64,000 nt of DNA from Dictyostelium discoideum (Eukaryota), in NCBI GenBank assembly GCA_000004695.1, contig CM000154.2, positions 4,512,001-4,576,000 on the forward strand. Reading direction: 5' to 3'. The translations under genes and the position numbers were made by a program. The notes under the pieces are model-generated. The model was not told the DNA's origin, searched no databases, and was given only the letters and a program-made list of their open reading frames with translations. Of this stretch, positions 9,101-35,267 are shown in pieces (the stretch's first letter is position 1; each line of letters opens with the position of its first letter).

Positions 9101-10268
9101 ATGGCAATATGAATACATTCTTTAATAGGGCAATTTTAGATACTTGTTTACATGGAGTTTTAGGTGGATTTACAAAACCAGTCGTACTTGATAGAATTGA
9201 AGCTTTCAAATTTTACTCTTCAAATATTCCATTATTAAATGAAAATGACAATAGCAATAATAATGGTATTGTTTTAGATATATTAAAATATTTGGTTAAA
9301 TATTCAAATGATTCAATTGAAAATATAATAATACTTTCAAAATCAAAACTAAAATGGGAATTAGAATTATTAATCAATCAAAGCAAATTTAAAAAAGATA
9401 ATAATATTAAATTCCATTTCTATCAAATCGATATTGAAGATTCAAATAAAGTTAATCAAGTATTAAATCAATTAGAATTAAATGAAAATATTACAAACAT
9501 TGATTCAATCATTCATTTTGCATTTATGAATGATATTGTGATGTTCAACAAATTGATATGAATCGTTTAAATAATACACATGGTGCTAAAACGATTGGAG
9601 CAATTAATCTTCACAATCAATCAATTAATTGTTCATGGAATATCAAACAATTTATAATGGCATCATCAGTAGTTTCAATATTTGGATCAGATCAACAATG
9701 TTGTTATGTTAGTGCATGCAATGTAATCGATTCATTATCAAAGTATAGACATTCAATTGGATTACCATCTTTAGCCATTAATTTAGGTGCGATATCGTCA
9801 ACTGGTTTCATATCACGTAATAATGCAATTGAAACAATGTTTCAGAGTTATTTTTTAAAAATATTCTCACCTCAACATGTTATTAGCTCATTAGATTTAT
9901 TCATTCAAAATCAACATCAATATCCAAATTATTGTGTATCAGATTTCGATTTTGAAATTTTACCATCAACTTTAACAAACCAATACCATTCAAAATTTGA
10001 TTTTGGAATTAAATATTTCGCTGGTGATAATAATAATGGAACTATTCACTCAACAATTTTAAATAAAATCAGTGAATTATTATCAATTGACGAATCTAAA
10101 ATCAATGAAGATTTACAACTCACACAATATGGTATGGATAGTTTAGTAATTGTACAATTAAAGAATTTTATCGATAATCAATTAGGTCATAATATTATCA
10201 CAATTCAACAATTACAAAATAATAAAATCAATCAATCAATTGAAATCATTAAATCAGCTCACAACAAA

Positions 10269-10862: not shown

Positions 10863-12288
10863 TTAATGATTGTTAATGATATCATTAAAAATCATTGATT
10901 CATTAATTTCCCAATCCTGATGATTATATGAACCAATTGAAATTAATAATTCTTTTGTGCTATTTGACATTTTGAATAAACTATTGATTTTAAAGCTTGT
11001 TAATAATAAATTTTGATTTTTGTGAATGTGGAATGTTGAATATCTTTTTGATGATTTTCCATTTGATTTTGAAACTAATTCAATCCATTCATAGAAATCG
11101 ATTTCTTTACATTTAAAACTATTTTCTAATACCCTATAAAATGATTTCATTTCAATTGAATCACCATTAAAATTATAAATTGAAATTGGTTTTGATTTAT
11201 TTTGATTCCAACTGTTTTCATTGAATATTAAATCGATTGTGGTTTTAGCTATAGTTGTAACTGGAGTTGTGAAAACTGATTTATGAATATTTGGATAATA
11301 ACCAATCTCTTTCGAAGATTTTATTAAAAGTGATATAAAATCATTTGAATGACCTATACCTGTTATTGGATTTGAGAATATATCTATAATTAAAATAGCA
11401 ATGAAAATAGTTATTGGAATATTATATATAAATATATAAGGTTAATACTAAATTAATTGATTGGAATCAATATATATTAATATGCTACATACCAGGTGGT
11501 CTAATAATGATTGATGGTATACCTCTTGATTCTGCTGCGTTTGTTAATAATTTCTCTGAAATAACTTTAGATTGAACATATCCAATTGGCGTAGAATTAT
11601 AACTTGGAACTAAATTTGTTTCTTCGAAATCCTCTTCATCTTTAAAAGGATGATTAATGAATACTGCAAGTGATGAAAAATGAACTATTAATTTTTGTGA
11701 GCTATTATTTGAAACTGATAATTTTATAACTTGATTAACGTTGTTGACATTTACAGTTTTACTTTCTTCATAGTTTGATTTTAAATCTAAATCTGCTGCT
11801 GAATTTATAATAATATCACATTCATTTGATAGTTTTAAATAATCTTGTTCAGTTAAACCAAAATTATCTTTTGAAATATCACCAATCGTTGGAATGATTT
11901 TAATTAATTGATCTTCACTTATTTGGCTATTATTATCACTATTATCACCACTTTCAATATTACTATTTAATCTTTGATTTGGTGATCCTTTGTTCATATT
12001 AATTAATTGGTGTTTCTTTAAATTATTAATAATTACATCGATTGGATTTGTTAATTTTGAATTATTTCTTATTAAACAATAAATTTTTGAGATATTGTTC
12101 ATTTTAATTAATTCTGTTAATAAATATGCACCCAAGAATCCTGTTGAACCTGTTAAGAATATTGATTTACTATTATTATTATTATTTAATATATTTTTAA
12201 TTGAATATGGTCTTGAAATGATTGATTCATTTAATTTAGTTTCATTTTTAATAAATTCATCAAGTGATTGTTGTTCTTTTTTAACTAA

Positions 12289-12356
<68 letters not shown>

Positions 12357-15300
12357 GAGCCGATTTAATAATTTCAATTGATTGATTGATTTTATTATTT
12401 TGTAATTGTTGAATTGTGATAATATTATGACCTAATTGATTATCGATAAAATTCTTTAATTGTACAATCACTAAACTATCCATACCATATTGCGTGAGTT
12501 GAAGGTCTTCATTGATTTTAGATTCATCAATCGATAATAATTCACTTATTTTATTTAAAATTGTTGAACGAATAATTTCATTATTATCACCATTACCACC
12601 AGTGAAAGATTTCATTTGATTTGATTTTTTAACAATATTAATTTCAAAATCAAATTTTGAATGGTATTGATTTGTTAAAGTTGATGGTAAAACTTCAAAA
12701 TTGAAATCTGATAAACAGTAATTTGGATATTGATGTTGATTTTGAATGAATAAATCTAATGAACTAATTACGAGTTGAGGTGAGAATAAATTAAAAATTG
12801 AACTCTTAAACATTGTTTCAATTGCATTATTACGTGATACGAAACCAGTTGATGATATCGCACCTAAATTAATGGCTAAAGATGGTAATCCAATTGAATG
12901 TCTATACTTTGATAATGAATCGATAACACTACATGCACTAACATAACAACATTGTTGATCTGATCCAAATATTGAGACTACTGATGATGCCATTATAAAT
13001 TGTTTGATATTCCATGAACGATTAATTGATTGATTGTGAAGATTAATTGCTCCAATTGTTTTAGCACCATGTGTATTATTTAAACGATTCATATCGACTT
13101 GTTGAACATCACCAATATCATTCATAAATGCAAAATGAATGATTGAATCAATGTTTGTAATATTTTCATTTAATTCTAATTGATTTAATACTTGATTAAC
13201 TTTATTTGAATCTTCAATATCTATTTGATTGAAATGGAATTTAATATTATTATCTTTTTTAAATTTGCTTTGATTGATTAATAATTCTAATTCCCATTTT
13301 AATTTTGATTTTGAAAGTATTATTATATTTTCAATTGAATGGTTTGAATATTTAACCAAATATTTTAATATTTCTAAAACAATACCAGTTTGACCAGTGA
13401 GTAAAATATTTTTACCAATATTTAATTTTGAAATATCATATAAATGTTTCATTATGATATGATTGTTATTACTTTGATAATTATTATAAACTCTATTAAA
13501 TTCATCTTGATTATGATTAACAATGATTTTACCAATATGTTTTCTTTGATTTATATATTCAATTGCATCTTTAAATTGATTATTTGAATATTCAATGATT
13601 GGTACACTTAACTCTAATTTATTTGAATTAATCATTTTGATAATTTTCTTTAAATAGCTTTTGATTAATTTACTAGTGAAATCGACAACTTCTACATTAC
13701 TATATGTCATATTAAATTTGAAATGATTATTTGTCATATAATCATTTGGTGTGAGATGAGTGATACTTAAATCAACGATACGTCCTGATAAATTTAAACA
13801 TTGGAAATTTGAATCCATATACTCTGATGATAATGTATTTAATATTAAATCTACACCTTGTTGTTCAACTTCACCTAATTCCATTAATTTATTCTTTATA
13901 TCTTTGACATAGTTTTTATTACGAGATGAATAGATAGCAGTAATTAATGATCCATATTTCTTTATTAAGTATTCTTCTTTATCTTTTGAACTAACTGTTA
14001 AAAATATATAACCTTGATGTTGTTTACTTTTTAATAAATCTAAAGATGATATACCAATACCACCTGCTGCTGAATGAATTAAAATTGATTCATTTGATTT
14101 TAAATTACCAATACTGTAGATACTATGTAATGATGTAATATAAATAGATGGTATTGATGCTGAAACTGAATGGCTATAATTTAATGGTTTATAATAAATA
14201 GAAGTGAAATCTACAATAACATGTGAACTACTTGCTTTTGAACCAATACCACAAACTTGATCACCAACTTTAAATTTCTTTACATTATTACCTAATCTTG
14301 TAATAATACCACTAAAGTCATTACCAATGTTTGGATTATCAATACCAATACCATTTTCAATTTCATACTCTTTACCATACTTAATATCTAAATCTGAACC
14401 AATCATACCGATATACATTAAATAATCTTTATAATTTATACCAGTTGCCTTAACTTCTATCTCTACTTCATTTGAATTTAATTTAGCTTTTTTACTATAT
14501 AATTGATATTCTAAATTTGAATTTAATTGAATATATAAATTATCTTTATTGGTTTCAAATGATTTAGATTGGAATATACTTTTAATATTATTTGATCTTC
14601 TACAATATCTTTCATAGTATACTTTATTATTATTAATTGTAAATTCTTTTTGAATATTATTATTTGGATTGATTAAATAATTGATTAATGATAATTGTTG
14701 ATTATTTTCAATTGAAATATTATCATAATTTAAAGTTAATAAATCTAATTGTGGGAATTCAACGAAATAACGAGCAGCACCAATAATTGATGATGATAAA
14801 TAATTATCAGTGGTTGAATTTAATGATAATAATAAATGTTTGAAATTATTTGATAATTCTAATTTTAATATTAATTGATTAATTTGAATGTATTCAAATG
14901 TGATCTCTTTGAAATTAAAAGTATTCATTGTTGATTCAATTGATTTTAAAAATATTATTAATGTTTTATTACAATCATCTTTATTTTGATAATTTGTAAT
15001 CCATGATTGAAATTCATTGTAATTACTAATATTAACGATTTTGTGTTTTAATTCTTGATTTAATCTTATTAAATTTTGTATACTACTGCTGCAGATATCA
15101 TTTTTATAACTATTAATATTTCTAATATTATTACTGTTACTACTAAATAAAATAATGTTATTGAAAGAATTTAATTGATCTAATGATATTGATTGTTCTG
15201 AAATGATTTCATTAATTGTTGGTTTTCTAGTTTGAATTAAAAATACTAAATTATCATTACCAGACATTATTGTATCTCTATAATTACATTGATTTAAAAG

Positions 15301-16028
15301 GTTAATCCATTTCTCTTGTTTCATACAACATCTATCAGGTCTTAATTCGATATCACTATCAGAGGATGGCCACCATTGTGAAAAACAACCGAATATCGAA
15401 TCAAAATAAAATGATTTGTATGGTGGTTCTATAAATAAAAGTTGACCATTTGGTGTTAATATATTATGAATTTCATTTAATGTTGGTTTGAGTTTCTTAA
15501 CGACATGCATAACATTTGACATTACAACGAAATCATAATAGGATGCTTTAAGATCTTGATCTAATAATGGTTTCTCTAAGTCTAATACACGATAGATAAT
15601 ATTTAAATTGTTATGATTTGTAAATGATGAGAAATTTTCTTTAATTTCAGCGAAAAATGATGCAGATACATCACTCCATGTAAATTCTATATTAATGATT
15701 GATGTTGTACTATTATCGTTTAATAATTTACAAATCTTTTCTAAAATTAATAAACTAAGACTACCAGTACCGCCACCTGCTTCTAATATACGAAATACAA
15801 TTGGTTCATTTAAAATTGGTTTTAGAGTTTCAACTATAATTTCACTTAATAAATTATTTGATGGTTTAATTACATTTGAATTCTTATAAAATTCATCTAA
15901 ATAACCACTTTCAAATAATGATTGTGGTGTATCTGTAATGGAATCATCATCTTTTAATGGGAATAACTGTTTTGCCATTACTTTAGTTGCTCTAATATAT
16001 AAATTTTCATAATTATTATAACCATTAC

Positions 16029-16080
<52 letters not shown>

Positions 16081-19000
16081 TATATTAGGATTGTTTTGGA
16101 ATTTTTTTAAAACTTCAAAAATGAATTTGAAAAGATTTTCATTTGCTAGACTATTATCATAATATAATTGTTTAAATTGATCATATTCTAATGTTGTTAA
16201 TGATTCTAAATTGATACTTGGACATCTTTTATTAATGTGTTTATAAAATAATGATGGTAATAATCCCTTTGAAATGAATCGATTTCCTTCTTCTTTGACA
16301 CTAAATTCATCTACTCTATATAAATGTTTGAATTGTTCAGGTTTATTGATCATAGAATCTTTTGATTGAAGATATGGTGTATAAATTTCATTTGATGGTG
16401 GTTTACAAATTATAGTACTATCAGGATTGGAGCCAACAATAGTGCAAACTACATTTCCAATATCAACTAATAATGTACCATTTGGAAGTATGATTTTAAT
16501 TGATCCTGAATATGTTTGAGAATTGGTTCTTGCTCTAATTTCAGAGTAAACATATAATTCTTTAATTGTATCATTATTATTGCTATTGTTGTTATTATTA
16601 AATGATGGATAATTTGAAGAGTAAAATTTGAAAGCTTCAATTCTATCAAGTACGATTGGTTGTGTAACTGCAACCAATACTCCATGTAAACAAGTATCTA
16701 AAATTGCTGTATTAAAAAATGTATCCATAATACTATTGTTCAATAAATGATTATATTCTTTTTGATTATAAATTTCATTTAATGATACTATTGTCAATGA
16801 ACAATTACTACCGATATGACATTGTTTTACACCTTGAAATAAACCTTTGTATGTTAAATTTGTTTTAATTCTAATAGTTTCATATAAATCTTGTTTTGAT
16901 ATGCTTGTAAAATTACATTTATCTTTTAATGATTGAATATTAATTGGTTCATTATTTTCAATATTATGTTTGGTTAAACTAAAATTACCAAGAGATGATA
17001 ATATCCATTGATTTGTTTTTTGATCTTTATAATGACTTTTAATATTGAATTCATTCTTTGATAGTGGTGCAATTGTAGTTTGTAAACATTGATTATTACC
17101 TTCTGTTAATACCAATGGTGATTTAAATTCTAATGAGCCAATTGTAATATCTTGATTTGGATAAATTGATAATAAATTGAGAACATATCCCATTCCTGGA
17201 TAATAGAATTTATCACTAACTTGATGACCTTTTAACCATTGGAATGGTAATTTCTTGATATCGATAAATGTTTGATATGATGGATATGGTGAATCTGTAT
17301 TATTACCAAGACTATGAATGGATGGACCTTCATTTTTAATCTTTTCATGAAACGAATTAATTTTAAAGTATTCTTTATCATCCCATTGGTAAAGTGGTAA
17401 ATTATTCAATTGATTTGTATTGTTATTATTGATTAATTGTGATTTGAAATTAATATCAAAATTATTATTGACATATAATAAAGAGATTGTCTTTAAGAAT
17501 TCATTATAATCATTCTTCTTTTTATTTAATGGTGAATAGATTGTAATGTTTTTACCATTATTAAAGTAACTTGATTGAGTTGATTTCATTTGATTTAAGT
17601 AATATTGTAATGTTGGATGTGGTGAAACTTCAATGAATGTAATTTCATTACCCATATCATTTGATTCGATATGTTTGTAAAGATTTGTAATTGTTTGTGT
17701 GAAACGAACTGGTTGGCGAATATTATTAAATACATAATCTGCATTGAATGGTGAGCTTTGATGATTGAATAAATTGGTTGTAACTGTTGAAAATACTGCT
17801 ATCGATGGTTGTTTCGATGAAATATTTAATGAACATACTTCATCTTTAATCATTTGTTGACTTGATGTATGAAATGATGATAATAATCCTAACATTGTAC
17901 AAAAGATATCATTTGATTTGAATTCATTGGTAATTTCATTTAATAAGTCTTCATTACCTGAGATAACGATCGATGTTGGTGAATTGTAACATGCAATTTC
18001 TAATGATTCATATTTAGTTGTAGATTGATATTTATTAATGAATTCATCTGAACTAATATTAACTGATAACATTCTACCTGTACCTATGGTTCTATTTTGA
18101 GCTACTGATCTATGGTAAGTCAAGTAGCATAATGTTTGAAAATCAATTATACCTGAACAATATGACGATGATATTTCACCAAGAGAATGACCAATGATAA
18201 TATCTGCTGAAACACCCCAATGTTTATATAATTCATAAAGTGATACTTGAATGATAACATTTGCAGGTTGTGCTAAAATTGGTTGATGAATTGATATTAA
18301 ATCTTTATCATCAATTGATCTTAATTTATCTAAAACTGAATAACCATAATATTTGAATAACTCTTTATCGAATCTATTGACAGATTCTCTAAATATTGGT
18401 TCATTATCATATAATGACGATGCCATTTTATTATATTGTGAACCTTGACCACATAATACCATTACTGTGATTGGCGATTTCTTTTTTTCAACTGTAATAT
18501 TTGAAATTAAATTATCACTATTTTCTAATTTGATTTGATTATTTTCATCTTGAAATTCATTCCAATCACTTGCGATTATAACTGATTTTTGAATTAATGA
18601 TGTTGATTTGAATTTAATTTGATTATGTACAAATTCTTTAAAACTTGTTGTGGTTGATGATGAATTTGAATGTTTAATTATTGATGATTTATAATTATTT
18701 AATGATGTTGATGAATTACTTGAGAGTGGTATTAAATATTTCTTTTTTTCATTAAATTTATTATCAATTTTGATTTTGTGATAACTATTACTTTTATTAT
18801 AACTAAATTGATTACCATAAAATTCAGATAATATTAAACAAACATTTGAACCTAAATAAAAAACATTATTAAAATATTAATTATTTATTTTATAATAATA
18901 AAATATAATGATATATATTTACCTGTAACACCGAAATTATTAAGTAACATGACAGTTGATTTATTTTCATTAAATTTAATTGGTTCAGTGACAACTTTTA

Positions 19001-20622
19001 ATCCCCATTCTTTAAAATTAATTAATGGATTTGGTTCTTTGAAATTAATATTTTGAAGAAATAGTTTATTTTTAAACATTAAACAACATTTAATTAATGA
19101 TGCAACTCCTGAACATGCTATTATTATTTATTATTATTATTATTATAGATAATATTTAATGTTAGTAGTTAATAATTGACTATAGTTATTTATATTTAAT
19201 TAAATTTAATTAACTTACCTTCAGTATGTCCAATATTTGATTTAATTGATCCAACTAAAACTTGTTTGTTATTATTTATTAATGTAGTTGTTGACGCTTT
19301 ATTATTGAAAACTCTTGATATACCTTCTAATTCTATTGGATCACCAGTTGGAGTACCAGTACCATGAGTTTCACAATAATCAATATCAGATTCATTGATT
19401 TGACCATTGGTTGATTTGATTGCTAATTTGATATTTTCATACTGAGATGATTTTGATGGTGAATAAAAGTTTAATTTATCAAAGTTACCATCGATATTTG
19501 AATTTGATCCTTTGATTACACAATAGATGTTATTTGAATCTTTGATTGCATCTTTTAATTTCTTTAATACAACGATACCAACACCTTCTGAACGAACATA
19601 ACCATCAGCATCCGATGAAAATGTATGACATCTACCTGTTGGACTTAGCATATCTAATTTTGTGAATGATTTTGAAATGTGTGGGTCTTTGAATAAATAA
19701 ATAAAATATCAAATTAATATCTTTTTTTTTTTTTTTTTTTTTTTTTTATCACATACCTAATATAAAATTAACACCACCAACAATTGAAACATTTGATTTA
19801 TTTGATTTAATTGAATTATATCCACAATTAATTGCATTTGACGAACTTGAACAAGCTGTATCAATTGTTAAATTTTCACCTCTATTTTTTAAAATTAATA
19901 TAATAGTTAAAATTATAGTTGTGGTAAAAGAAAAGATAAATCAAAAACATACCTAAAATCAAAGCAATAACCAATTCTATTTGCAATAGAATGAGTTGTG
20001 GAACCAAAAATATTATTTTGAGTTTCCAATGGTGATCTTTGAAGATCATTATAATCAATAGTACTACTACCAATAAATGTACTTGTATTGGTACCACGTA
20101 AACTAATTGGATCAATACCACTATCTTCTAATGCTTCCCATACACCTGTTTGTTGATTTTATTTTAAAAATATAATTAATAAATAAATAAATATAAATAT
20201 CTAAATTTTTTGTGGAAAAGTTCAAAAACACTTAATAAATACATACATTTTAATAATAATCTTTGTTGTGGATCTATTGAACTGACATTATCATTGCTTG
20301 GATTAATTGCAAAGAAGATTGGATCAAATTGTTTCCATTCATCAAGTGGAAGTAAACCAGCAAACTTTGAAACGATTTCACCATTTAAATAATAATTATC
20401 AGACCATCTTTCAGAAGTTGTAACGATTCCATCCAATCCATTCAATAATTCATTAAATAATTGATTTGGTTTTGAAATTGATTCTTTTAAATTACCACTT
20501 GGAAATCTTAAACCAATACCAATCACTGCAACATCACCACTACCATCAACATCATCATAATCATTTCTATCCCTTATTAATTTATTATTATAAGTGCTAT
20601 TATTGTGAATATTTTCTGTCAT
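10863..20622 (-). CDS. Type I reducing polyketide synthase PKS-B, complete (KS-AT-DH-CMeT-ER-KR-ACP-R), 7 exons: complement(join(10863..11383,11493..18851,18923..19117,19219..19686,19757..19881,19953..20145,20247..20622)), about 3078 aa
   Basis: ATG at 20622 (MTENIHNN...), then [17 protein letters not shown] motifs: DTACSSS (exon 3), [14 protein letters not shown] and NIGHTEG (exon 4). AT: GQGSQ and GHSLGE. DH: [11 protein letters not shown]. CMeT: [14 protein letters not shown]: [11 protein letters not shown]: GMDSL. R: [14 protein letters not shown] and YVQSK. All introns are GTATGT/GTAAGT..AG, 71-109 bp. Exon lengths sum to 9237 nt (3079 codons) with consistent phases. The terminal exon 10863..11383 is colinear with PKS-A exon 2. 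Confidence 0.85.
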
Positions 20623-20744
20623 TTTTTTTCTTTTTTTTCTAAATAAAACAATAAACAAAATTATATAAAAAATTTTAAAGTATTTATAATTTTTTTTTTT
20701 TTTTAATCAAGTTAAATTTTCATTTAATTTTTTTTTTTTTTTTA

Positions 20745-21008
20745 TTAAAATTTAAAAATTTTAATCAGAAAAAATAATAATTGTGTGTGGGGTAACCTAT
20801 TTAAATTTTATTTATTTTGATTCAATTAATTTTTTTTTTTTTTTTTTTAGTGTGTAGACTGACCACATTCACCACTGTTGAAAATGAGATATAAACTGAA
20901 AAAACAATTCAGTCTTTTTAAATTTTACCTGAATAATAAAAACCATTGTTTAAAAACAGGGTGTGGTGGGACGGGTTATTTTTTCTGATTAAAATTTTTA
21001 AATTTTAA
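20745..21008. repeat. Element with perfect 33-bp terminal inverted repeats (20745..20777 and 20976..21008) flanking a 198-bp core that has G-rich blocks; MITE-like or hairpin-forming
   Basis: Left arm ttaaaatttaaaaattttaatcagaaaaaataa is the exact reverse complement of right arm ttattttttctgattaaaatttttaaattttaa. Internal GTGTGTGGGGTAACC and GGGTGTGGTGGGACGGG blocks are unusual in this AT-rich context. It lies about 120 bp upstream of the PKS-B start. Confidence 0.7.
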
Positions 21009-21377
21009 TTAAAATAATTTCGATAAAAACATCATCATTTTTAAAAAAAAATAAAAAAAAATTAATATTATTTTAAAAAAAAAAAAAAAAATCTATTAAA
21101 ATTGAAAAGATTATTATTATATTCTTTATTGAATGATTTATGTGTTTTTTAATATTTTTATTAATAAAGAACATTTTGGTTAATAGTTGAAAAAATGAAA
21201 TGTAATTTATAATAAATGATTATTATTTTTTTTGAAATTTTTTTTTTTTTTTTTTAAAAAAAATCATATTTTCAATTTTAAAGGTAATAAATTAAACAAA
21301 CAAACAACAAACAAACAAACAATAGTGATGGTTCTAAGGATGAAAATAATATAAATGGTTAAAAATTAATAATAATA

Positions 21378-21449
<72 letters not shown>

Positions 21450-21689
21450 CATTTATTAAAAATTATAATAACCAAAATCAATATGACAAAAATAATTTAA
21501 TTTTTAATAACAAAGATAGTAAATATAAAATTAGTTTTAATAAAGAGTTTTCAATTATAAAAATCAAAGAATCAATAATCAATGATTATTTTAAATTTAA
21601 TTTATTTAAAAATAATCAATTAGTTTATAATAGAATTTTAGCTGATATTTAAACTGGCTATTATGATGGGAATCAAGATGAAATTTTAT

Positions 21690-22030
21690 TTAAAATACAT
21701 GAATATATCAAAAGAAAATTCACAACTGTTCTATCAACTACTCATGCTAAACCATCAACCATAACTGTTCCATCAACTACCCATCTGCACTACCAACCAC
21801 TACTGGCTCACCAACTACTCAGCCGCACCACCAACCGCTACTGTTCCATCAAATACTCATGCTGCACCATCAACCACTACTGTTGCATCAACTACCATGC
21901 TGCATCTTCAACCCAACTGTTCCATCGACTACTCATGCTAAACCATCAACCACTACTGGCCCACCAACTAATCATGCTGCACCACCAACCACTACTGGCC
22001 CATCAACTACTCATGCTTCACCATTAAATT
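21690..22030 (+). repeat. Degenerate tandem repeat, about 39-bp unit x about 8-9 (consensus actactcatgctgcaccatcaaccactactg(g/t)(c/t)ccatcaact), Thr/Pro/Ser-rich reading frame with indels
   Basis: Visible periodicity. One frame reads PSTTHA(A/K)PSTTTGPPTNHAAPPTTTGP... but has unit-to-unit indels (for example catctgca versus catgctgca), so it is not an intact CDS. Confidence 0.7.
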
Positions 22031-22535
22031 AATAATAATAATATTAATAATAATAATAATAACAAATAAATAAATTAACAAATAAATAAATAAATAAATA
22101 GATTAATAAATAAATAAATTAATAAAAAAAGGTAAATAAAAAAAAACTAGTTTTAATATATTTGTGTATTTTTAAAATTGTAAACATGTTTTGAAAAAAA
22201 AAAATTATTTTATTGTTTAAATTTGGTTTAAAATTCAAATAAAAAATGATCAACTCTAAAAACGAAACCCTTTTCAAAGAATGATAATTGTTGGACACCA
22301 CTGCTACAATCAATACCATCATTGAGTTGAAAATTACCATTGAAACCAAATTCAAAAAATTCAGTTTGATAACATGTTGGAAATTGACTACTTGATGTGA
22401 AACATTGTTGATTTAAACCTTTATTAATCTTTGAAAAGTCATTTCTATTTGTATCTAAATTTATTTATTAAATATTATATTTTTGCAACAATGAAAACAA
22501 TGATTAAAATAATAAAAAAATAAATATTTTTTTTA

Positions 22536-24338
22536 TTAATTACGTTTTATGAATAAGGCATCAAAAGGTTTACATTGCATTGCCAAACCAACTTCTCCTT
22601 CAACATCAATTGGAATATCAGTTGGATTGACTATTTTAAAATTCTTTAACATTATCACCAAAAATGTAAAAGTCAAAGATTCTGTAAATCTTCCTCCTGG
22701 ACAACCTCTAGGTCCTGTTTTAAAAAAAATAATAATGATGATTATTATTATTATTATTATTATTATAAATTAGTTGTAAATTAAAAAAAAAAAAAATAGT
22801 GGTAAATTTTAATTCCTTTTTAAAATGGTATCAAAACATACCTGCACCAAAATGAAAAAGTCCTTTTTGATATAAAGGTTGATTTTTAAATCTTTCTGGT
22901 TTAAATTCTAAAGCATCTTCACCCCAAAACTCTTTTGATAAATGTGTACCACGAAGATTTTTAATTATCATTGTACCTTTTGCAATTTTATATCCATTTA
23001 CTTCAACATCTTCTGTTGTTTTATTCGGTTCAGTTATTGGTACTGAAGAATTATATCTATATGATTCTATTATTCAAATTAATACAAAATTTATTTTTTG
23101 AAAAAATATATCAACACATATTAATACCAATATATATATATATATGGATAATTACCATTCATTACAGAAATAATATATGGATATTTTGTATGATCAGCAA
23201 ATGATATATTATTTGTATTATTATTTTCATCATTTCTCATGATTTCTTCATATATTTTATCTTGAATTTCAGGTTTATTAATTAATTGACCAATTAAAAG
23301 ACTAAACCCATTGGATGTTGAATCAACTGCTGCAAAAATAATATCAGAAATTGAAAACAAGATTGAATCATAATGAATTGAACCATCTAAATAATTTTTA
23401 TAATAATTCTCAATAATTGGAATATTGTTTAGTTTTGAAGATGTTTCATCAGTAGTTTCATTTTTCAATTCATTTTCTTTTTCATATTTAATTTTAATAG
23501 CATCAAGTTTTATACCTATAAAATCTTTTAAAAAAAAGTAACTAGAAATAATATCATTCTTTGACATTGATTTTATATCTAATGGAAATAAAAATGGTAA
23601 ATAATCAGAGTAAATTAATAATCCAGCAGCTTCAAAAATGCATTTAATCTTTTCTACAATGATTAGAATGGTTTCATCATTCTCTTCAATTCCTAATGTG
23701 AAATTTAATATTAATTTAACAGCAAGAATCCTAATTTGATTTGGTGTATTTTTAACAAGAGTTTCTTTATTATCTTTACAAAGATTACTAAACATTTCTA
23801 AAATAAATTTATTTGATTCTAATCTGCCATTATTTAACTTTCTTGTTGTAATTTCACTTGTAAGAATTCCTCTTAGAACATAATGATAATCACCATTTGA
23901 AGAAATAATGTTATAATCTTTACCAAAAAATCTTGAGAATTTAATATATCTTTCTTTGAAAATTTCTCTATGTTTTTTATTAAAACATTCATCAATAACT
24001 TCAGGCCCTGTTAGAACAACAATTTCAACACTACCCAATCTTAATCTAAAAACTTTGCCATATCTTTCATAGAAATCATTTACACTTTTTGGGAAATCTT
24101 TTGCGTTAATTTGTAATAAATTACCAAAAACTGGAATTGTAGAAGGACCAGGTATTAATTTATTAATTTTTTTAATCCTACCTTCAAATAATAAATCCTA
24201 TTTAAAAAAATAAAAGTATAAGTAAGTGTTTAATTTTTAATAATCAATAATATATATAATATTTTAAAATTTTACTTTTAATATTAATGATAATACTAAT
24301 ATTGTAATTGTTAAAATAATTGTAAATATTGTATTCAT
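22536..24338 (-). CDS. Cytochrome P450 monooxygenase, 4 exons: complement(join(22536..22714,22842..23066,23156..24197,24276..24338)), about 502 aa
   Basis: Minus-strand ATG at 24338 opens a hydrophobic N-terminus (MNTIFTIILTITILVLSLILK), then a Pro hinge (IPGPSTIPVFGNL) after a 78-bp intron. Exon 2 (ORF 23121..24038) has the I-helix AAVDSTS. Exon 3 has ESYR (ExxR) and FKPERF. Heme-binding FHFGAG|PRGCPG is split by a 127-bp intron between exons 3 and 4. Stop is TAA at 22536-22538. Phases are consistent (63+1042+225+179 = 1509 nt). Confidence 0.85.
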
Positions 24339-24584
24339 TGTAATATTATAAAATATTTTAATTGAGAATCTTTTATATTAAAGTTTTTATATTAAAAAAA
24401 AAACTATTTAAATTATAAAATAAAAAAAACCAATAATGTTTTTGTTAAAAACAAATTGATATATTTAAATTTTGGGGAAGTGGGTTAAAATAATTAATTA
24501 TAAAAAAAAAAAAAACCACCAAATTTTTTTTTTTTTTTTCTTTATTAATAATTAAAAAACTTTTTTTATTTCTAAAAACGAACT

Positions 24585-24722
24585 TGAAAACAGTTTAGAA
24601 AACAGTTTTTAATTTATTTTTTGAAACTGTTTAATTTTATTTTATTTTAATTTTAAAAAAAAAACCAAAATAAAAAAATGACCATTGTACCTTTTGTAAT
24701 ATACTTCAATAAACTGTTTTTT
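24585..24722. promoter_or_regulatory. Cluster of four AAACNGTTT palindromic motifs about 250-380 bp upstream of the P450 start (candidate cis-regulatory sites)
   Basis: gaaaacagttt (about 24586), gaaaacagttttt (about 24598), gaaactgtttaa (about 24623), aataaactgtttt (about 24708). These stand out against otherwise featureless A/T runs. Confidence 0.35.
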
Positions 24723-25321
24723 TATTATTTAATTTTAAAAACAAAAATAAAAACAAAAATAAAAATAAAAATAATGAATTAAAAAAAAAAAAAAAAAAAG
24801 TTATAAGATATCTAATTAAGGGTGTAAAAATTTCAGCAATATTTTTTATTTTTATTAATTTTTTTCTGTAATAAATTCGTAAACATATAATAAAAAAGAG
24901 ATATCAAATAGAAACAAAAAAAATAAAAAAGTTTTAACATTTCAAAAAAAGAGAAGTTTAAAATTTAAGGGGGTAAAAAAAACATTTTTTTTTTTTTTTT
25001 TGTAAATTGACAAACACAAAAGCAAACTATACATTAAGTTAAATCTATTAAATAGTTTTTTATATAGAGTCTCGGGGAAATCACCAGATTTCAAAAAAAA
25101 AAATAAAAAAAAATAAAAAAAAACATAATTTTGGGTCAAATAAAAAACAAAAATTTTTTTTTTTATAGTGCGAATTAAAATTAATTATTTGTGTTGAAAG
25201 TAATATCCAAACAATCTAACCTTTTTTTTATTTTTATTTTTTTAATAACTATAAACGTCATCAAATTTTTTATTTAATTTTTTTTTTTATTTCTATAATA
25301 ATATCAAATTTATTTATTTTA

Positions 25322-25400
25322 TTTTATTCTATTTTATTCTATTTTATTCTATTTTATTGTATTTTATTTTATTTTATTTTATTTTATTTTATTTATTTGT
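25322..25400. repeat. (ATTTT / ATTTTATTCT)n microsatellite
   Basis: attttattctattttattct...attttattttattttatttt. Confidence 0.8.
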
Positions 25401-25477
25401 AAAAGAGAAAAGACACAAAATATAGATAATAATAATAAGGGATAGAAATGATGATGATGATGTTGATAGAAATGATG

Positions 25478-26840
25478 ATTTTTTTTTTTTTTTTTTTTTT
25501 GATATAAATAAACTATTGTAGTATGTTATTTTTATTTATTTATTTTAGGTTTTTTAGTTTTTGTGAATTTAAAATGGTATGTTATTTTAGATTAGGTAAT
25601 TAATAATTAATTGGTGGTGTAATTGTTGGAATTGGTTCATTAGTGTTTATGCTCCATTCTTTTTTAAATTTTTTGATTGTTTCGGACCATTGGGTTTCTT
25701 TTTGAGTTTTTGTGAGGTTGTTTTTAATTGAGTATTGGTTAAAGTTTGATAATGTTCTTGAATATTCCAATCTTATTAGCTTGTGCCATTTTGATTTTAA
25801 TATATCATAATCTAGTGTTGTGTTGTTTATTTGGTTGTTCCAATTATCAATTGATTGAGTTATATTGATGTCAAATAATGATTTGCATAACCATATCCAT
25901 ATTTGGTGAATAACTAATGAGATTATGTTCCAATATGCATGTGTTCTGACTAGATCAAGATTTGTGTTTATATAATTCCAGTTGAACCTGTATTTTTTAT
26001 ATTGTGCGTTTTCTGGAAAATGAAAATTAATATTGATAGTTGGATCTGGTTTAAATGCTTTGTTGTTTGTTTGTGGTTTATAAATGAGTGTGTATAATTT
26101 TGTTGTTTGGTTTTTTGTTAATGACCAGTTTTTGTTTCCATTGCAATTTTTATATATAAAATATTTTAATTTGTCGTGGTTTATGAAGTTGATTGTGTGC
26201 TGACAATTGAAAAACAAATGACCATAGGGATCATTATTCATTTCATTGTTGCAAATGGGGCAAACTTTGTTGTGTAGATGATTAATCGGAAGACATCTAG
26301 CATGGAATCTTTGCATTGTATCACGGCCTTTTGGATCTTTTAATTTTTGAATTTTGACAAAAAGTTGGTCGTATGTGTATTTCCATAATAGTTGTATTGA
26401 TTGTTGGTGCGAAGTAAGAAGTAGATCTGAATATTTCTTGCCAATATAGTCTTTTGATTTGCATTGGTGATTGTTGAGTATTGTCGAGTAGATTTCTTTG
26501 AGTGTTGGTGGTAGTGAAATATTATTTGTGTTTAATGTTTGAGAGGTTTGGTTTTTTGTTAATATTGGTTGTAGGGTTTGAACTTTATCTTTTAGATGTC
26601 CAATTTGAGTTGCATAGTTTTCCCATTCTTTTTTGATTTTTATAAGGTATGGAGAAGAGATTGATTTGTTGATGATTTGATCCATCCAACTTATCATGTA
26701 TATTGAATTGTTTGCAGATTTATGCTTTTGTAAAAATCTGTTGTATATCCAAATCTTTTGAGCAACTTGTCGTAATTGTATATTCCACATACCCCAACCA
26801 CCTTCTTTTAATGGTGTTTCAACAAATTGAAACAAATTGA
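25478..26840 (-). mobile_element. 5'-truncated non-LTR (LINE-like, possibly TRE-type) retrotransposon 3' fragment: ORF2 C-terminal region with CCHC motif, 3'UTR and poly(A)
   Basis: Minus ORF 25600..26835 (411 aa) lies in a locally GC-richer block. It contains CPICNNEMNNDPYGHLFFNC (C-x2-C-x10-H-x4-C), typical of non-LTR ORF2 C-termini. The + strand T23 run at 25478-25500 is a poly(A) tail about 100 nt after the stop. The ORF begins abruptly at about 26835, next to a short caaattgaaacaaattgaaaca direct repeat (26819-26840). Confidence 0.6.
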
Positions 26841-27648
26841 AACAAGTTTTTTTAATGTTTAAAAAAGGAATCTCTAAAAATAACCTATATTTAAAAATAA
26901 TAAAATTTTTTAAAATTCCAACTTTTTAAAAATGGTTTTTTTATTTTTTAATTGAAAAAAAAAAAAAAATTAAACCCAATTAAACAAAATTTTTTTTCTA
27001 ATTAATCAAACATGATATTATTTTCTCCAAATTTAAAATATTTTTAAATTATTCCACATCATAAAATGTATACATATGTGTATTTTATTGTGAAAAATCC
27101 CCTTGTTAATGAAGGGAAATTTTTTTTGAAATTTCACTACAAAAAGATTTGGTATGAAAATTTGAAAAAGACAAAAAAAAAAAAAAAATTAAAATTAAAA
27201 AAAATATCTTCACGTGGGAATTTATTTTCAGAAAAACCTTTTTTTTTTTTCATTTTTTATTTTTTTTTATTTTTTAAATTCTTAATAATAAATAAAATGA
27301 CAGTAAAATAAACATAAAAACAAAAACCAAATTTACAGACTTTATTTTTAAAATCCCCAACATGATACCGATTATCTCCAAATTTAAAATGTTCCACACT
27401 ATATAAAAAAAAGTGGTACTTGATAATTTTAATTAATATTCATTTTTTTTTATTGGTTCACCTATTTTTAACTGCTTCTTACTATAAAAAATAATAGTAA
27501 AAAAAAAAGTAAATAATGCAAGTTTCTAAAAAAAAAAAAAAATATAAATTAAAAAAAAAAAAAACAAAATTTAATTTTAAAATTAATTTAGAATTATTTC
27601 TGGTAATAACTAATAGAGATATTCCTCAACTAAAATAACTAAGCACCA

Positions 27649-30600
27649 ATGAATAATTTAGAAATTATAAATTTAATAGATAAAGGTGTTGCAATTGTTG
27701 GGGTGGGGTTTAGAATTCCTTCTGGTAATAATGAAAATTCAATTTGTTCACCAGATGATTTATTTAATAATTTAAAGAATGGTTTTGATGGTGTTAGTAG
27801 TACATCAGAAAGATGGAGTGACAATTTTCATAAATTAGGTGAAATTAGTAGTCCAAATGCAGGTTTATTACCATTTAATGAATGCAAATCATTCGATCCA
27901 TTATTTTTTGGTATTAATCCATCCGATGCTCATCAGATTGATCCTCAACAAAGATTATTATTAAAATGTACATGGGAAGCATTAGAAGATGCATCTATCG
28001 ATCCAATTTCAATTCGTGGTACAAATACTTCAGTTTTCATTGGTTCTTCAAATATTGATTATCAACATATAAATAAACACCAAGACTCAGTTTTAAAAAA
28101 TGTAATAGCACAATCTGCCTATGCTGTTTCAAATAGAATTTCATACTGTTTCGATTTTAATGGTCCATCATTATCAATCGATACTGCATGTTCATCATCA
28201 TTAAATGCAGTTTCTCAAGGTTATCATTCAATATTAAATGGTACTTCCAATATGTCAATTGTTGGTGGTGTAAATTTAATATTAGGTAAGAATTACATTT
28301 AAATATATTATATATAAAATACACTCATTAATTAATTTTTTATTTAAATATTTTACTAGATGTTGGAATGATAAAAGCATATTCGTATTTAAGCATGTTA
28401 AGTAAAACACATGGTAAATGTAAAGCATTTGATGAAAGTGGCGATGGTTTTACACGTGGTGAATGTGCTACTATTGTAGTTTTAAAAAATTTACAAGATG
28501 CAGTTAAAGATGGTAATAGAATTTATTGTGTAATTAATGGCTCAAGTTCAAACGTTGATGGCGGCGGTCATATGGATAAAGTTAACCTTTATTCACCATC
28601 AAAGCAATCACAATTTAATAATATTAATTCAGCATTTAAATCAACCAATGGTAAACTTTCAATTAATGATATTCAATATATCGAAGCACATGGTACTGGT
28701 ACTAAAACAGGCGATCCAATTGAAACTGAAGCAATTTCAATGGCTTTTAAAAATAGAGATAAATCAACACCAATTCTAATTGGTTCAATTAAAAGTAATA
28801 TTGGTCATTGTGAAGCTGGTTCAGGTGTTGCATCATTAATCAAATGTTGTTTAATGTTTAAATATCAATGCTTTTTACCAAATATTCATTTCAAAAATCC
28901 AAATCCATTAATTAAATTCAATGAATGGAATTTAAAAGTTGTAACATCACCAATTCCATTCAACAAAAGAATTAATGAAAAACCAGTTTCAATGATGATT
29001 AATAACTTTGGTGTAACAGGTTCAAATTGTTGTTTACTTATTTCAGAATTTAAAAAACAAGATTATGAATCATATGAAAACAACAACAACAACAAAAGTA
29101 ATCATAAAAATATATTAATACCATTCTCAGCAAATTCATCAAATTCATTAAATCAATACCAATCAAAATTTAAAAATATAATTAATAATCAATTCAATTT
29201 TATTGATTTTACCGCAAATCAAATTTATTCAAAATCAAATTATCTTTATCAAAGATCAGTTGTAATTGCAAGTAATTCAAATGAACTTTTTGAAAAAATT
29301 TTAAATAAAAAACAAATTCAAACTAAAAATTCAATCATTTCGAATATGTCATTCAAAGGAAAGAACCCAATTACAATTTTTGTTTTTTCAGGTCAAGGAT
29401 CACAATATCCTAAAATGGCTTTAGAATTATATAATAATGATGAAATTTTTAAGAAGTCAATTGATTTAATCGATTCAAAATTATCAAAGTACTATGGTTA
29501 TTCAGTATGGGGGAAGTTAACAACGATCAAAGATGATGACTTGACCTCAATACATGATCCAATTTTCGCACAACCAGCACTGTGTATGCTTTCAGTATCA
29601 CTATTTGAAATATATTGCCATTGGGGAGTAAATCCATCATTTATTCTTGGTCATAGTCTTGGTGAAATTTCAGCAGCATATTGTTCTGGAATGATCGATT
29701 TAGATACATTCTGTTATACAGTTTATTACAGATCAATCGCCCAATCTAAAACAAATGGTTGTGGTAGAATGTTATCAATTAATATCAGTGATGAAGAATT
29801 TAAATCAATGTATTCTCAAAAGTATCCACAAATTGAAATTGCGTGTTATAATTCACCTCAATCAATTGTTGTGGCAGGTAATGAATCAATATTAAATGAA
29901 ATTTCGAAAGAATTAAAAGAAAAAGAAATTTTCACTGCAATGTTAGGTTCATTATCATCATTCCATACAAGTAGTCAGCAATGTACAAAAGATAGTATAT
30001 TACAACTAAACATTGAAAGTAATCAACCAAAAGTACCAATATTTTCAACAGTTACAACAAATTTATTTAATGAATCAAATCGATTTAATTCACAATATGT
30101 TTATGATAATATTATCAAACCAGTTAAATTCACACAAACAATTTCAAATATTTATAAACATATCGAATCAAATCAATTAAATAATGATATTGTATTCATT
30201 GAAATTGCACCACATCCAACAATATCATTTTATATTAAGCAAATGGTACCATCAAGTTTAAATGAATCAGTTTCAGTTTATTCAGCACTTCACAAGAAAA
30301 AGAATGATGTCGAAGAGTTTCAACAAACCATTTCAAATTTATATTGTCAAAATGGATATAGTATTAATTTTAAATGTCAATTGGAAAATAAAAAATCAAA
30401 TCAATCAATAAATTTACCACTTTACCAATGGGATGATGAATTATACTTCGCTCAAACTCAAACACTTGAACAATATACAAAAGAAGGACCACCAATCGAT
30501 CATCTTGGTCTATCAAACTCTTATTATTCACCATTTAAAAATTCATATAGAACATTTATTGATATAAATAATAAACCATTCCAATATCTTAAAGGTCATA

Positions 30601-33600
30601 TGGTTAAAGGTAAATACTACTTCCCAGGTTGTGGTTATATCGATATTATTATTCAACTTTATAAAAATCAAGATATTTTTATTAGTTTTATTGAATTTAA
30701 AACACCATTAATTTTAATTGAAGGTATCAATCAATATTTACAAACAAACATTCAACAAACTGGTAAAAGTGAATATCGTGCACAATTTCATTTCAAAGAT
30801 CAAAAATCAAATGAATGGATTCAATCATCAAATGCAAATTTCCAATTATTAGATCATGGTAATGATATACCATCAAATTATAATATTGAAGAAATTATTA
30901 AAAACAAATGTAATTTGAGCAAATTAACAAAGAATGAACTTTATACACAAATAAAATCAAAAACTGGTTTGAATTATACTGGTGTTTTTCAAGGTGCTAC
31001 TGAATGTTATTTAGGTAATGATTGTTCATTATCAGTTTTATCTTTAAAATCTCAAACAAATTCATTTTTAAATATACCAATTTTAGATACATGTTTACAT
31101 GGAATGTTAGTATTAATAAATGATCAAAGTCAAATTGTATTTGATAAAGCCATTGGATTTAAATATTATTCATCAAACATACCATCGGATCTTAAAGAAT
31201 ATAAAGATAGTATTTATGTTTATTCCAATTTAAAACCAAAAAATGCTGATTCATACCATGGATCTATTATAGTAATGTTATCAGATGGTTCAGTTTTATA
31301 TGAAATTCAAGAAGTTATTTTTAAATCATTAATTCCAATCAAACATTCACTTAAAATTGAGTATCCAAATGATGAATTATACAAAGTTCATTTACAATCA
31401 AAAGATTCTCAAATTCCAACGCCATCATCATTCAAATCAATTATTTATGAAAATGATTTCTTCCATTCTGCACTTAATATTCCAGAAGATTTATTCAAAT
31501 ATATTTCAACATTATTTTATAAAGATATTATAAAAAGATGTCCAGAAATTAATATCAATAAAATTAATTCTCATAGTGTTAATGAAATTATTTCAAGTTT
31601 CAGTAAAATTTCAAAAAATCAAAGATTATTTAGATTTGTATTTGAAACAATAAAAGAGAATGGTATTCTTAATAGTTTGGAAGAAAATGATGATGCTTAT
31701 TTCGAATTTAATGAATTAGTTATTAAATCATCAAAAATTATTTCAAAATTATTATTCCCACTAGAAAGTGATAATGATAATGAAGATTTACCTCAATCAT
31801 TATTTCAAAATGGTTTAATGGATAAAATTTATAAATGCAGTTATTTAAGAAAGAAGTATCAAATGATTTCACATGTCATTATACATTCAATTAAAGAGAT
31901 TATTAATAATAATATTATAATTAGAATTTTAGAATTTGGAGGAGGCACTGCGTCATTATCAGTTGAAGTTATTGGAGAAATCGTTGCATTACTTCAAGAG
32001 AATCCAAATTATCAAGTTGAAATCGAATATACATGGAGTGATATTTCACCTGCATTCATAGCAGATGCAAAGAATAAAATCAATAAAATCATTAATGATG
32101 CTGCTATAACAAATGGATTAAATGTTATTTATCGTTCATTAACAATCGATGAATCATTGCTTGAAAATCAAGCAATTAAACCATCATATTATGATTTCGT
32201 TATAATGTCAAATGTTCTTCATGTTGTTAAAAATATTAAACAAGCTGTAGAACAAATGTATCAATTGTTAACACCGAATGGTCAATTGCTATTTATAGAA
32301 CCACCTTATAAATCAGTTCTAATCGATTCAATCATTGGTTCATTTGAACAATGGTGGTCATTCACTGATACTGATATTAGAAAAGATAGATGTGGTATGT
32401 CTCAACAAAGTTGGTATCAATTATTAAAGACATGTAATTTTAAAGACATTTTAATGTCAAAAGAATGCATCTTTGTTGGGTCAGTAATACATGCACAAAA
32501 ACCACCAATTTCTTTATTGAATTCTCAACCAAAACATGATAATATAATTATATATGGTGGTGGTGGTAATTTAAGTTTTGTAGAAAACATCAAATTAGAT
32601 TCAAATTCAAAAAGTTTAATTCAAATTGAAACTATTCAAGAATTTAATCAATTATTAAGTCAATCAACAATTACAAATGATTCAATAATTTATTTCATAA
32701 AAACATTAGAAACATTATCATTGGATAATTATAAACAAATAACTCTTGAATATATTGAAATCAATCAAAGACTATTACAAATCAATAGTTTATGTAAACA
32801 TGTATTAATTGTTAGTGATTCAAGAAAAACTAACTATTTAGCATCATCAGTTGTTGGTGCTGCAAGATACTTTGATGAATTCCAACAATTGAAATTACAC
32901 ACATTAGATTTTGATTATGATTCAACTCAAAATTATATAAATTCAAAAAATAACAAAATGGTTCAATTCATTAATATCTTGGTGGACTCCAAAACAAATG
33001 TTCATAAAGAAATGATTATAATTAATAACAAAGTATATTATGAAATAGTTCAAAAAGAGAAAAATCTAAAACTAAAATACAATTCAGAATCTTTTGAAAA
33101 TCAAAATAATTTAATGTGTTCATTATCACCAAATTTAGAATATCAATTACAATCAAAACAAATTAAATTAAGAGATAATCAAGTTGAAGTTAAAACAATT
33201 GCAACTGGTATCAATTATAAAGATTATTTAAATTTTAGCGGTTCAAATAATAATAATGGTGATGACAATACAGGTTTACCACAATTTGGATATGAATTTT
33301 CAGGTATTATAACAAGAGTTGGTAATAATGTAAAAGATTATAAAGTTGGTGATAATGTATTTGGTTTATCAAATTCTTGTACATCATCCCACATTGTTAC
33401 AAATTTTAAAAATATTCAATTAAAACCTTCAAACATAAGTCATAACGAAGCATCATCAATTCCAATTGATTATTTAACATCATTTATGAGTTTATTTAAT
33501 GTTGGTAGTTTAAATATTGAAGATAATGAATCAATTCTAATTCATTTAGGTAGTGATAGTTTTGGATTATCAACATTTGAAATATTAAAATGGAAAGGTT

Positions 33601-35267
33601 TTAAATCAAATTTATTCGTTACAGTTGATTTGGACGAAACTAAACAATATCTTCTAGATAGATATGGTGATTTTATTACTGGAATTTATTCAAACACAGA
33701 TAAAAGTTATGTTACAGAAATAAAAAACGAATTAATTAAATTAGGTTCAAAAAAGAAAGGAGTAGATTTAATATTAAATACATTACCAAGTGATTTTATG
33801 GATTCAAATTTCGAGTTATTAACAAAGAGTGGTAGAATAATTGATTTAACTTCAAATCATTTAAATCAAAGTGAATTTTTAAAAAATATCAATTTTAAAT
33901 ATAACCATGGTTACCACAACTTTCAGTTATCATTAATTCAAAAAAATAAAATACAAAAATGTTTATATGAAATTTCACATGCTATTGAAAATGGAGAATT
34001 AAAAACTATTCCAATTAAAGAATTTACAAATTTAAATATTAAAGATGCCATCAAATACATTACCAACGGTAACATTGAAAAAATTACAGTTAGTCATGAT
34101 CATGAAATTTATAGTGATATTATTTATAGATCTTTAGATGAAAAAGAGTTTTCAATATTAAAATCAAATTATCAAATTAATTCAAATAATTTAGGTAAAA
34201 ACATATTAATTACAGGTCAATCAGGTATTATTTTAGAAATATTAAAATGGATCATTAAATATTCAAATATTAACACAATTGAAAATGTTATTATTCTTTC
34301 AAGATCATCATTAAAATGGGAATTAGAATTATTAATTAATCAAACTAAACTATCAAATAATAATATTAAATTTCATTTCAAGAGTGTTGATGTCGGTGAT
34401 AGTGAACAAGTTGATAATGCAATCAATGAAATATTAAATGAAAATCAACAAATTACAAATATTGATTCAATATACCATTTTGCATTTCAACAAATTACAT
34501 GTAAAGTTCAAGAAATCAATATGAAACATTTAGATATTTCACATGGAGCAAAATCAATGGGTGCAGTTAATTTACATAATCAATCAATTAAACGTAATTG
34601 GAAATTAATTAATTTTGTTATGGCTTCTTCTGCACTTTCATTAATAGGTTCAACAGATCAATGTACATATGCCTGTGCAAACCTATTATTAGATTCATTT
34701 TCAAAATACAGAGAATCACTTGGATTACCATCTGCTTGTATTAACCTTGGGTCAATTGAATCAACTGGTTTCGTTTCAAAGAATGAATCAATTTCAGAAT
34801 TTACAGATGGCATTGGTTACGTTCCAACACCTATCAATCTAGTTTTAGGTCTTTTAGATTTACAAATTCAAAATGCAGGTAAATTTACGAATTCAATGCT
34901 TTCAAATTTAATATCATCAAAATTTAAAAATATTCAACAAACATCATTATTTCTAAAATTTGATTACTTGATGAATTTAAATGACAACAGTGAACAAACT
35001 AAAAAAGAGAATATTGGAAATAAAAACATTGATGAATTATTCATTGAGAAAGTTTCAGAATTATTTTCAACGGATCAATCAAGAATAAATAAAAATCTTA
35101 GATTAATTGATTATGGCGCAGATTCATTAATAATAGTTCAATTAAAGAATTGGATAGATAAAGAAATTGGTATAAATTTAATAACAATTAAACAACTTCA
35201 AAACAATACAATTAATATTTCAATCAAAATGATATTAAATTCATTAATGAAAAATAATCAAATATAG
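27649..35267 (+). CDS. Type I reducing PKS-C (KS-AT-DH-CMeT-ER*-KR-ACP), 2 exons: join(27649..28285,28360..35267), about 2514 aa; terminal R domain lost
   Basis: ATG at 27649 ([27 protein letters not shown]). KS: [10 protein letters not shown], a 74-bp phase-1 intron after VGGVNLILG, then [14 protein letters not shown] and [12 protein letters not shown]: GQGSQ and GHSLGE. DH: [11 protein letters not shown]. CMeT: [12 protein letters not shown]. Degenerate ER motif: [16 protein letters not shown]: [15 protein letters not shown]. It terminates with ...NSLMKNNQI* at 35267, where PKS-D continues into about 415 aa of R domain. Confidence 0.85.

Follow-up and report, generated by a model that had tools for sequence, protein, structure and literature searches.

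Is a short segment of Dictyostelium discoideum DNA that is bracketed by perfect inverted repeats and lies just upstream of a PKS gene a mobile element, a regulatory structure, or native promoter DNA around which a repeat arose? The segment is part of a stretch of 64,000 nucleotides (hereafter the window; 22% GC, with several PKS genes) and sits in the chromosome 5 PKS/cyp514 cluster of AX4-type DNA. A first-pass annotation, made from the letters of the window, had read it as a MITE-like transposon remnant or a regulatory cruciform. The window and ten further loci, which are numbered with an L below, make up ~300 kb of D. discoideum-group DNA, corresponding to ~0.4% of an AX4 genome. Combining the repeat structure, the gene neighborhood and the comparisons between paralogous loci, we tentatively prefer a third reading, whose chances we put a little short of even: the segment is native PKS/cyp514 intergenic promoter DNA bracketed by a local inverted duplication, and the G-boxes within it are functional.

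A perfect inverted repeat brackets 198 bp

The arm sequence TTAAAATTTAAAAATTTTAATCAGAAAAAATAA has exactly two matches in the window, at 20745-20777 on the plus strand and at 20976-21008 on the minus strand, both with 0 mismatches. The description of these arms as 33-bp exact reverse complements was correct and slightly understated, in that perfect pairing extends one base further to 34/34 (20744-20777 / 20976-21009), and the whole bracketed segment measures 266 bp (34-bp arms and a 198-bp core). The features that define it are:

20744-20777, no strand: left arm of the perfect 34-bp inverted repeat; its outer 22 nt are a 10+10 mini-palindrome
20976-21009, no strand: right arm, exact reverse complement of the left arm
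20778-20975, no strand: 198-bp core, 27% GC; its RNA is no more structured than shuffles
20620-20622, minus strand: ATG of the 3078-aa PKS, the same start as in assembly GCA_054883475.1

Pairing of the arms decays at once in the outward direction (42 nt with 2 mismatches) and is absent inward. The outer 22 nt of each arm form a 10+10 palindrome, ATTAAAATTT-AA-AAATTTTAAT, and because these outer parts are self-palindromic the arms also match each other as direct repeats over 20/22 positions; the orientation of the arms is fixed only by the inner 12 nt, CAGAAAAAATAA.

Given that the arms are 94% A+T and that self-complementarity of their outer 22 nt lowers their information content, the repeat could be imagined to reflect chance in low-complexity A+T-rich DNA or an assembly artefact. 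Both origins are already refuted. As the first-pass annotation had held for the 33/33 match, the pairing is far above chance: no arm match is expected, as seen in 100 dinucleotide shuffles with up to 3 mismatches allowed. Elsewhere in the window, perfect inverted repeats of >=26 nt consist exclusively of homopolymer or AAT runs. Across the ~300 kb, with a cutoff of >=27 nt and a distance of up to 1.5 kb, a single further perfect inverted repeat is complex in sequence (L004 6572-6713 / 7231-7372), the remaining ones again being homopolymer or AAT runs. Moreover, the element is 100% identical in the independent assembly GCA_054883475.1 (L006 13331-13594; same lineage as the window), and therefore the repeat is not an assembly artefact.

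The inverted repeat in L004 belongs to a foldback of ~870 bp (6537-7411), the arms of which (6537-6713 / 7231-7411) include the 142-nt perfect inverted repeat and flank coding-like DNA in which a 129-aa gene is called; the foldback immediately precedes the retroelement in the other PKS cluster.

The segment lies between two homology blocks

The adjoining PKS is an intact gene of 3078 aa that is called in GCA_054883475.1 with its start at window position 20622 on the minus strand. The left arm begins 122 bp upstream of the ATG, in agreement with the ~120 bp given earlier, and an TATAAATA-like box is present at 20688-20681 on the PKS sense strand. Paralogous PKS genes are homologous to the PKS 5' block as far as 75-124 bp upstream of the ATG (20697-20746) and not beyond. 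The limit on the right is set by a degenerate gene copy:

21268-22469, plus strand: pseudogene copy belonging to a small gene family (P0149-P0153); bounds the element-bearing stretch 20746-21235 on its right

This copy, which has one stop and two frameshifts and is ~80% identical to L010 10355-11596, has its own T-run promoter beginning at ~21235, and the family to which it belongs is multi-locus, encodes proteins of 115-175 aa and lacks a Pfam domain. The element thus lies in a stretch of 490 bp (20746-21235) between the PKS 5' block and the pseudogene copy. A role of the element as promoter of the neighboring pseudogene was considered and rejected: in L010, the related gene possesses a T-run promoter of its own and is not preceded by such an element. 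The 57-aa ORF at 21859-22032 is DDB_G0290741, and this annotated AX4 gene is just one reading frame of the T/P/S-rich repeat of the pseudogene.

Further to the right lies a P450 gene on the minus strand (22536-24338) that is cyp514A1, with 1 mismatch in 501 aa, and the block around it (22490-24841) is 94.5% identical to the cyp514A4 locus in L001. It is followed by a reverse-transcriptase element at 25519-26819 and by a 2931-aa PKS at 38115-46976, which is DDB_G0271530 of D. discoideum AX4. The region 12228-26819 matches CM142511.1 4587473-4609583 of GCA_054883475.1 at 99.98%. In related loci, divergent PKS(-)/P450(+) pairs are the usual layout. Literature searches with the ids of the neighboring genes returned nothing. 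On sequence grounds, the 490-bp stretch reads as a rearrangement junction in a cluster that was clearly rearranged.

The core carries two G-boxes and a start-like motif

The core stands out by composition, with 27% GC vs 6% in the arms and 7-10% in the flanks. The G-rich blocks noticed in the first-pass annotation are indeed present, at 20783-20797 and 20957-20975, as is the moderately GC-rich stretch, which begins at 20849. Three features of the core bear on its possible function:

20782-20792, plus strand: GBF-type G-box cluster 1, at -170 from the PKS ATG
20957-20975, plus strand: G-rich block 2, with the GBF 7-mer match GGTGTGG at 20960-20966, ~-344 from the PKS ATG
20798-20850, plus strand: start-like motif, made up of TATTTAAAT (20798-20806) and T19 (20830-20848) followed by A-G (G at 20850)

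The second G-rich block directly abuts the right arm, and the two subterminal blocks are in direct orientation, i.e. on the same strand and not inverted. Using the GBF motif (T/G)G(T/G)G(T/G)G(T/G) as defined in PMC2257962, we found 15 GBF-type clusters in the 64-kb window, most of them in coding DNA, and two of the 15 lie inside the 266 bp. Similar G-box motifs are present in promoters of the same PKS subfamily, at -206/-343 (pks30, L001), -383/-491 (L002) and -331/-425 (L005).

Because of these G-box motifs, an influence of the element on PKS expression is plausible, and we suggest that the two G-boxes are likely its functional part and that they would mediate GBF-type activation of the PKS gene in development. 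In this model, the G-boxes at -170 and -344 would recruit GBF or a similar G/T-box factor and in that way switch on the PKS gene, and their positions would correspond to the usual place of upstream activating elements in post-aggregative Dictyostelium genes. Binding of GBF to the core and promoter activity of the core are thus predictions of the model. The closest parallel is with the GBF-dependent promoters of the sigN gene pairs (PMC2257962): in both cases the motif matches lie in extremely A+T-rich intergenic DNA, a few hundred bp upstream of a start codon and between oppositely oriented units. Unlike in the sigN promoters, the G-boxes described here are ~170 bp apart instead of forming close pairs, and they are bracketed by a 34-bp perfect inverted repeat.

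Pol II start sites in D. discoideum have been described as a G preceded by up to 26 T-rich nucleotides (PMC6161686). The T19-A-G motif of the core resembles this pattern and points to the right, away from the PKS gene. The combination of TATTTAAAT, T19 and the G start is a candidate relic core promoter.

The same G-rich DNA, read on the other strand, could be taken as the upstream element of a small RNA gene. Specifically, a minus-strand ncRNA gene of ~66 nt with a GACUGA...UCAGUC terminal stem would be driven by the DUSE-like box TCCCACCA, which lies at 20971-20964 and ~57 nt upstream of GACTGA at 20914; a DUSE is defined here as [AT]CCCA[AT]AA about 60 nt upstream of an RNA start, and a terminal stem of 7 bp is possible between 20914-20908 and 20862-20856. 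Several observations largely refute this reading, to which we accord next to no probability: TCCCACCA has 2 mismatches to the DUSE consensus, and exact matches to this consensus are absent from the element and its surroundings; the Class I motif CCTTACAG(CAA) has 0 matches in the window; Rfam finds nothing, either at the gathering score or at E <= 10; and the core is no more structured than shuffles on either strand (z = +0.7 for both). A C/D-box snoRNA reading of the AGACTGA...TCAGTCT stem was likewise rejected, as neither strand has a RUGAUGA box close to its 5' end and the Rfam E-value search gave no hit there.

Part of the core is related to DNA of the same type of cluster

The central part of the core has a counterpart in strain ACTFIW, where it precedes the second gene of a tandem pair of cyp514-type P450s (L007):

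20830-20924, plus strand: stretch homologous to L007 9564-9645, comprising the T run, CCACT.TT.AAA and the exact 22-mer AAAACAATTCAGTCTTTTTAAA at 20901-20922

The 22-mer matches L007 9622-9643 exactly and in both places is preceded by a long T run and CCACT.TT.AAA. The alignment of the core with L007 scores 37.0 bits vs a null of 26.5 +/- 2.0, a score reached by 0/300 dinucleotide shuffles; it was not reported by nhmmer. It spans ~95 of the 198 core bases and excludes both the G-boxes and the arms. In addition, a paralogous PKS of D. cf. discoideum is preceded, at a comparable distance, by a 13/14 match to AACAGTGGTGA(A/G)TG that has the orientation seen here.

Because of the L007 match, the D. 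cf. discoideum match and the divergent PKS/P450 layout of related loci, the core, at least in its central part, has the appearance of native DNA from between a PKS and a P450 gene, apparently oriented as it would be towards a P450 partner that was lost. This homology does not extend to the repeat: the idea that the left arm is an ancestral promoter sequence common to the pks30 and L007 promoters was dropped, given that the similarity in question, ATTAAAATT-AAAA...TTTTAACAG, is within background in a scan of the ~300 kb.

Does the segment represent a transposon?

In size, perfect terminal inverted repeats and A+T-rich ends the segment is similar to MITEs of the Tourist/PIF type, which are associated with TTA, and of the Stowaway/Tc1-mariner type, which are associated with TA; as in those elements, there is no coding capacity, a gene start adjoins and a TTA or TA flank is possible. 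In the corresponding scenario, a solitary or low-copy MITE-like non-autonomous DNA transposon was inserted 122 bp upstream of the PKS start, and its GC-richer interior brought along the G-box-like motifs, which would now act on the gene. Combining the evidence on both sides, we regard this scenario as the main rival but an unlikely one and conclude that the 266-bp segment is probably not a transposon.

With respect to structure, the perfect 34-bp terminal inverted repeats with sharp outer and inner boundaries and the jump in GC content from 6-10% around the core to 27% within it would fit an inserted element, and the 266 bp are devoid of real coding capacity, the longest ORF having 36 codons and only low-complexity matches among 1.84 billion representatives. 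The asymmetric subterminal motifs are unlike those of MITEs, as the G-rich blocks are direct and not inverted.

With respect to target-site duplications, the check for TA/TTAA at the flanks that had been proposed gave a divided result. TTA (3 bp) or the palindromic AT/TA/TTAA is present and could represent a duplication, but the latter three belong to the repeat itself, such matches are trivial in 90% A+T DNA, and there is no unambiguous duplication. None of 5, 8 or 9 bp, or more generally of 5-10 bp, was found at the element flanks; the termini read ATTAA/TTAAA and the 5-bp flanks, TTTTT vs TAAAA, are unlike. A derivative of Tdd-4/Tdd-5 (Ginger2) is excluded by the non-TGTNR termini and the missing 5-bp target-site duplication. 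Tdd-4 and Tdd-5, the best-described TIR transposons of D. discoideum, are 3.8 kb long with TIRs of 260-297 bp, TGTNR termini and 5-bp target duplications (PMC2836005), and none of these features is present here.

With respect to copy number, blastn, Hamming scans and nhmmer over the window and the ten loci returned neither another copy of the arm (<=8 mismatches) nor another copy of the core, so that no family is demonstrated; the absence of a second armed copy from ~300 kb is a weak test, as the AX4-lineage DNA in it amounts to ~0.4% of the genome and a family with fewer than ~250 members would probably have escaped notice. We know of no matching transposase family in Dictyostelium, and, reportedly (Gloeckner et al. 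2001), published AX4 repeat catalogues contain no such family. Full-text literature and supplement searches gave 0 matches to the element sequences. The arm pair and a core 23-mer also had 0 matches in metagenome, viral and prokaryotic collections, a result that is expected and uninformative for Dictyostelium.

The comparison with paralogous promoters can be read in two ways. BLAST alignment with the sequence ahead of a paralogous PKS gene (L008) stops at 20746, i.e. at the left edge of the element, and the element is absent from the paralogous PKS promoters in L001, L002, L005, L007 and L008, as an insertion would leave them; these loci and L003 are paralogous or rearranged and not orthologous sites. 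The L008 upstream alignment is barely above shuffles (score 68 vs 49 +/- 7.5), and beyond the right edge of the element no resumption of homology is visible in the paralog. Similarly, the partial match in L007 could be a second, decayed copy at another site, but it is armless and located beside a cyp514 gene of the same gene cluster, and segmental paralogy fits better. The ~95 bp that the core has in common with DNA upstream of a cyp514 P450 of the same cluster in another strain mean that the interior is partly related to native cluster DNA, which is not what a foreign insertion predicts. Of the original interpretation as MITE or cruciform, the terminal repeats, their coordinates and the promoter position stand; part of the core is homologous to native cluster DNA, and a cruciform is unlikely (see below).

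A MITE, if the segment were one after all, would represent the first family of this type to be described in a dictyostelid and would exemplify the delivery of G-box motifs to a secondary-metabolite gene by a transposon; specialists on transposons and on Dictyostelium would find this moderately interesting.

Pairing and inversion of the arms

Extrusion of a cruciform from duplex DNA is very unfavorable with a spacer of 198 bp. Because the arms are too far apart and the stem is almost pure A/T, the regulatory cruciform suggested in the first-pass annotation is unlikely; the DNA centroid structure reaches only -3.3 kcal/mol. Pairing of the arms would instead be expected to be confined to single-stranded DNA and to transcripts covering both of them.

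Two further functions would make use of the arms as such. The segment could be a promoter cassette that is inverted by recombination or, alternatively, the source of a hairpin RNA whose 34-bp duplex is diced into small RNAs. A directional core-promoter-like motif does lie between perfect inverted repeats and between two oppositely oriented transcription units, and the full 266 nt fold with a 34-bp stem on both strands (z about -5). However, the core has the same orientation in both assemblies (the window and GCA_054883475.1, two consensus sequences) and no recombinase is associated with the cassette. The A/U-only stem with its 198-nt loop is unlike D. discoideum miRNA hairpins, and published miRNA sequences gave no match (PMC6161686 supplement and full-text searches); a miRNA hairpin is not supported. 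Taken together, these two functions are improbable. For the more specific proposal that the arms make the 198-bp core an invertible cassette, with the T19-G promoter firing either away from or into the PKS gene, the probability is lower still, and we consider it very slight. If it were true, clonal amoebae would vary heritably in the expression of a secondary-metabolite gene, and the cassette would be a eukaryotic counterpart of bacterial invertons.

A model for the origin of the segment

We tentatively suggest that native promoter DNA and a local inverted duplication together account for the segment. According to this model, (i) a 34-bp local inverted duplication bracketed a native promoter segment during the rearrangements that built the present junction, (ii) the core would have kept a relic core promoter, consisting of TATTTAAAT, T19 and the G start, that faces away from the PKS gene in the direction that, in related loci, would be taken by the divergently transcribed P450 partner, and (iii) the G-boxes would continue to act on the PKS gene, the 34-bp arms probably being a neutral scar.

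The duplication mechanism behind the arms is what we infer from their arrangement; neither a donor site nor an ancestral state with one arm was found. Local inverted duplications that are left as foldback or template-switch scars, such as L004 6537-7411, provide a precedent. Similarly to the segment described here, they consist of an inverted copy a short distance (a few hundred bp) away, have sharp boundaries and occur in a fast-rearranging gene cluster that is interrupted by repeats. The L004 foldback differs in that its arms are much longer and include coding-like DNA. We count the presence of this large inverted duplication in a neighboring PKS cluster as support for a local inverted duplication here.

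If this reading holds, it would bring a small gain in annotation, namely a candidate cis-regulatory module with two G-boxes for one of the roughly 45 mostly uncharacterized PKS genes of Dictyostelium, and it would illustrate how promoters are reshuffled by local rearrangement in a fast-evolving cluster. The segment would then be an ordinary kind of feature in an unusually clean form beside an uncharacterized secondary-metabolite gene, and no long-standing question would be opened by it.

Additional observations on the window and related loci

Several observations concern the surroundings of the segment and the related loci. Upstream of a cyp514-type P450 gene in L007 there are two 53-nt direct repeats (9392-9444 and 9468-9520), which are 94% identical and each contain the GC-containing palindrome AAAAAGGCGCCTTTTT; a promoter unit, TTTTTAAAAAAATAGTTT, occurs three times there with a spacing of 137-151 bp.

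In the window, sequences from two different contigs of GCA_054883475.1 meet, namely CM142511.1, which has the size of chromosome 5, on the left (12228-26819) and JBTAPE010000001.1 on the right (25519-45268). The piece that is common to both contigs at the junction is the reverse-transcriptase retroelement at 25519-26819. Genes on the left side have AX4 ids of the chromosome 5 type (DDB_G0290741, cyp514A1) and those on the right side have ids of the chromosome 2 type (DDB_G0271530, DDB_G0295667). The join reflects either a genuine translocation or chimeric assembly across a repeat.

Immediately to the left of this retroelement, 24853-25480 holds the upstream region of another PKS gene along with the initial ~80 nt of the gene itself, at 79% identity to L001 9467-10081; this gene is divergent from cyp514A1 and truncated by insertion of the retroelement. 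Between two intact PKS genes, KS and AT pieces of a PKS with disrupted frames occupy 35678-37089 and represent a pseudogene that tandem duplication left behind. A scaffold gap of 100 N is present at 50918-51017 in an ORF-rich region.

Finally, the splice model of cyp514A1 derived from the window gives a protein of 502 aa, as long as that of cyp514A4. The recorded protein EAL62077.1 has 575 aa and a different C-terminus, and the deposited cyp514A1 gene model may read through a splice site.
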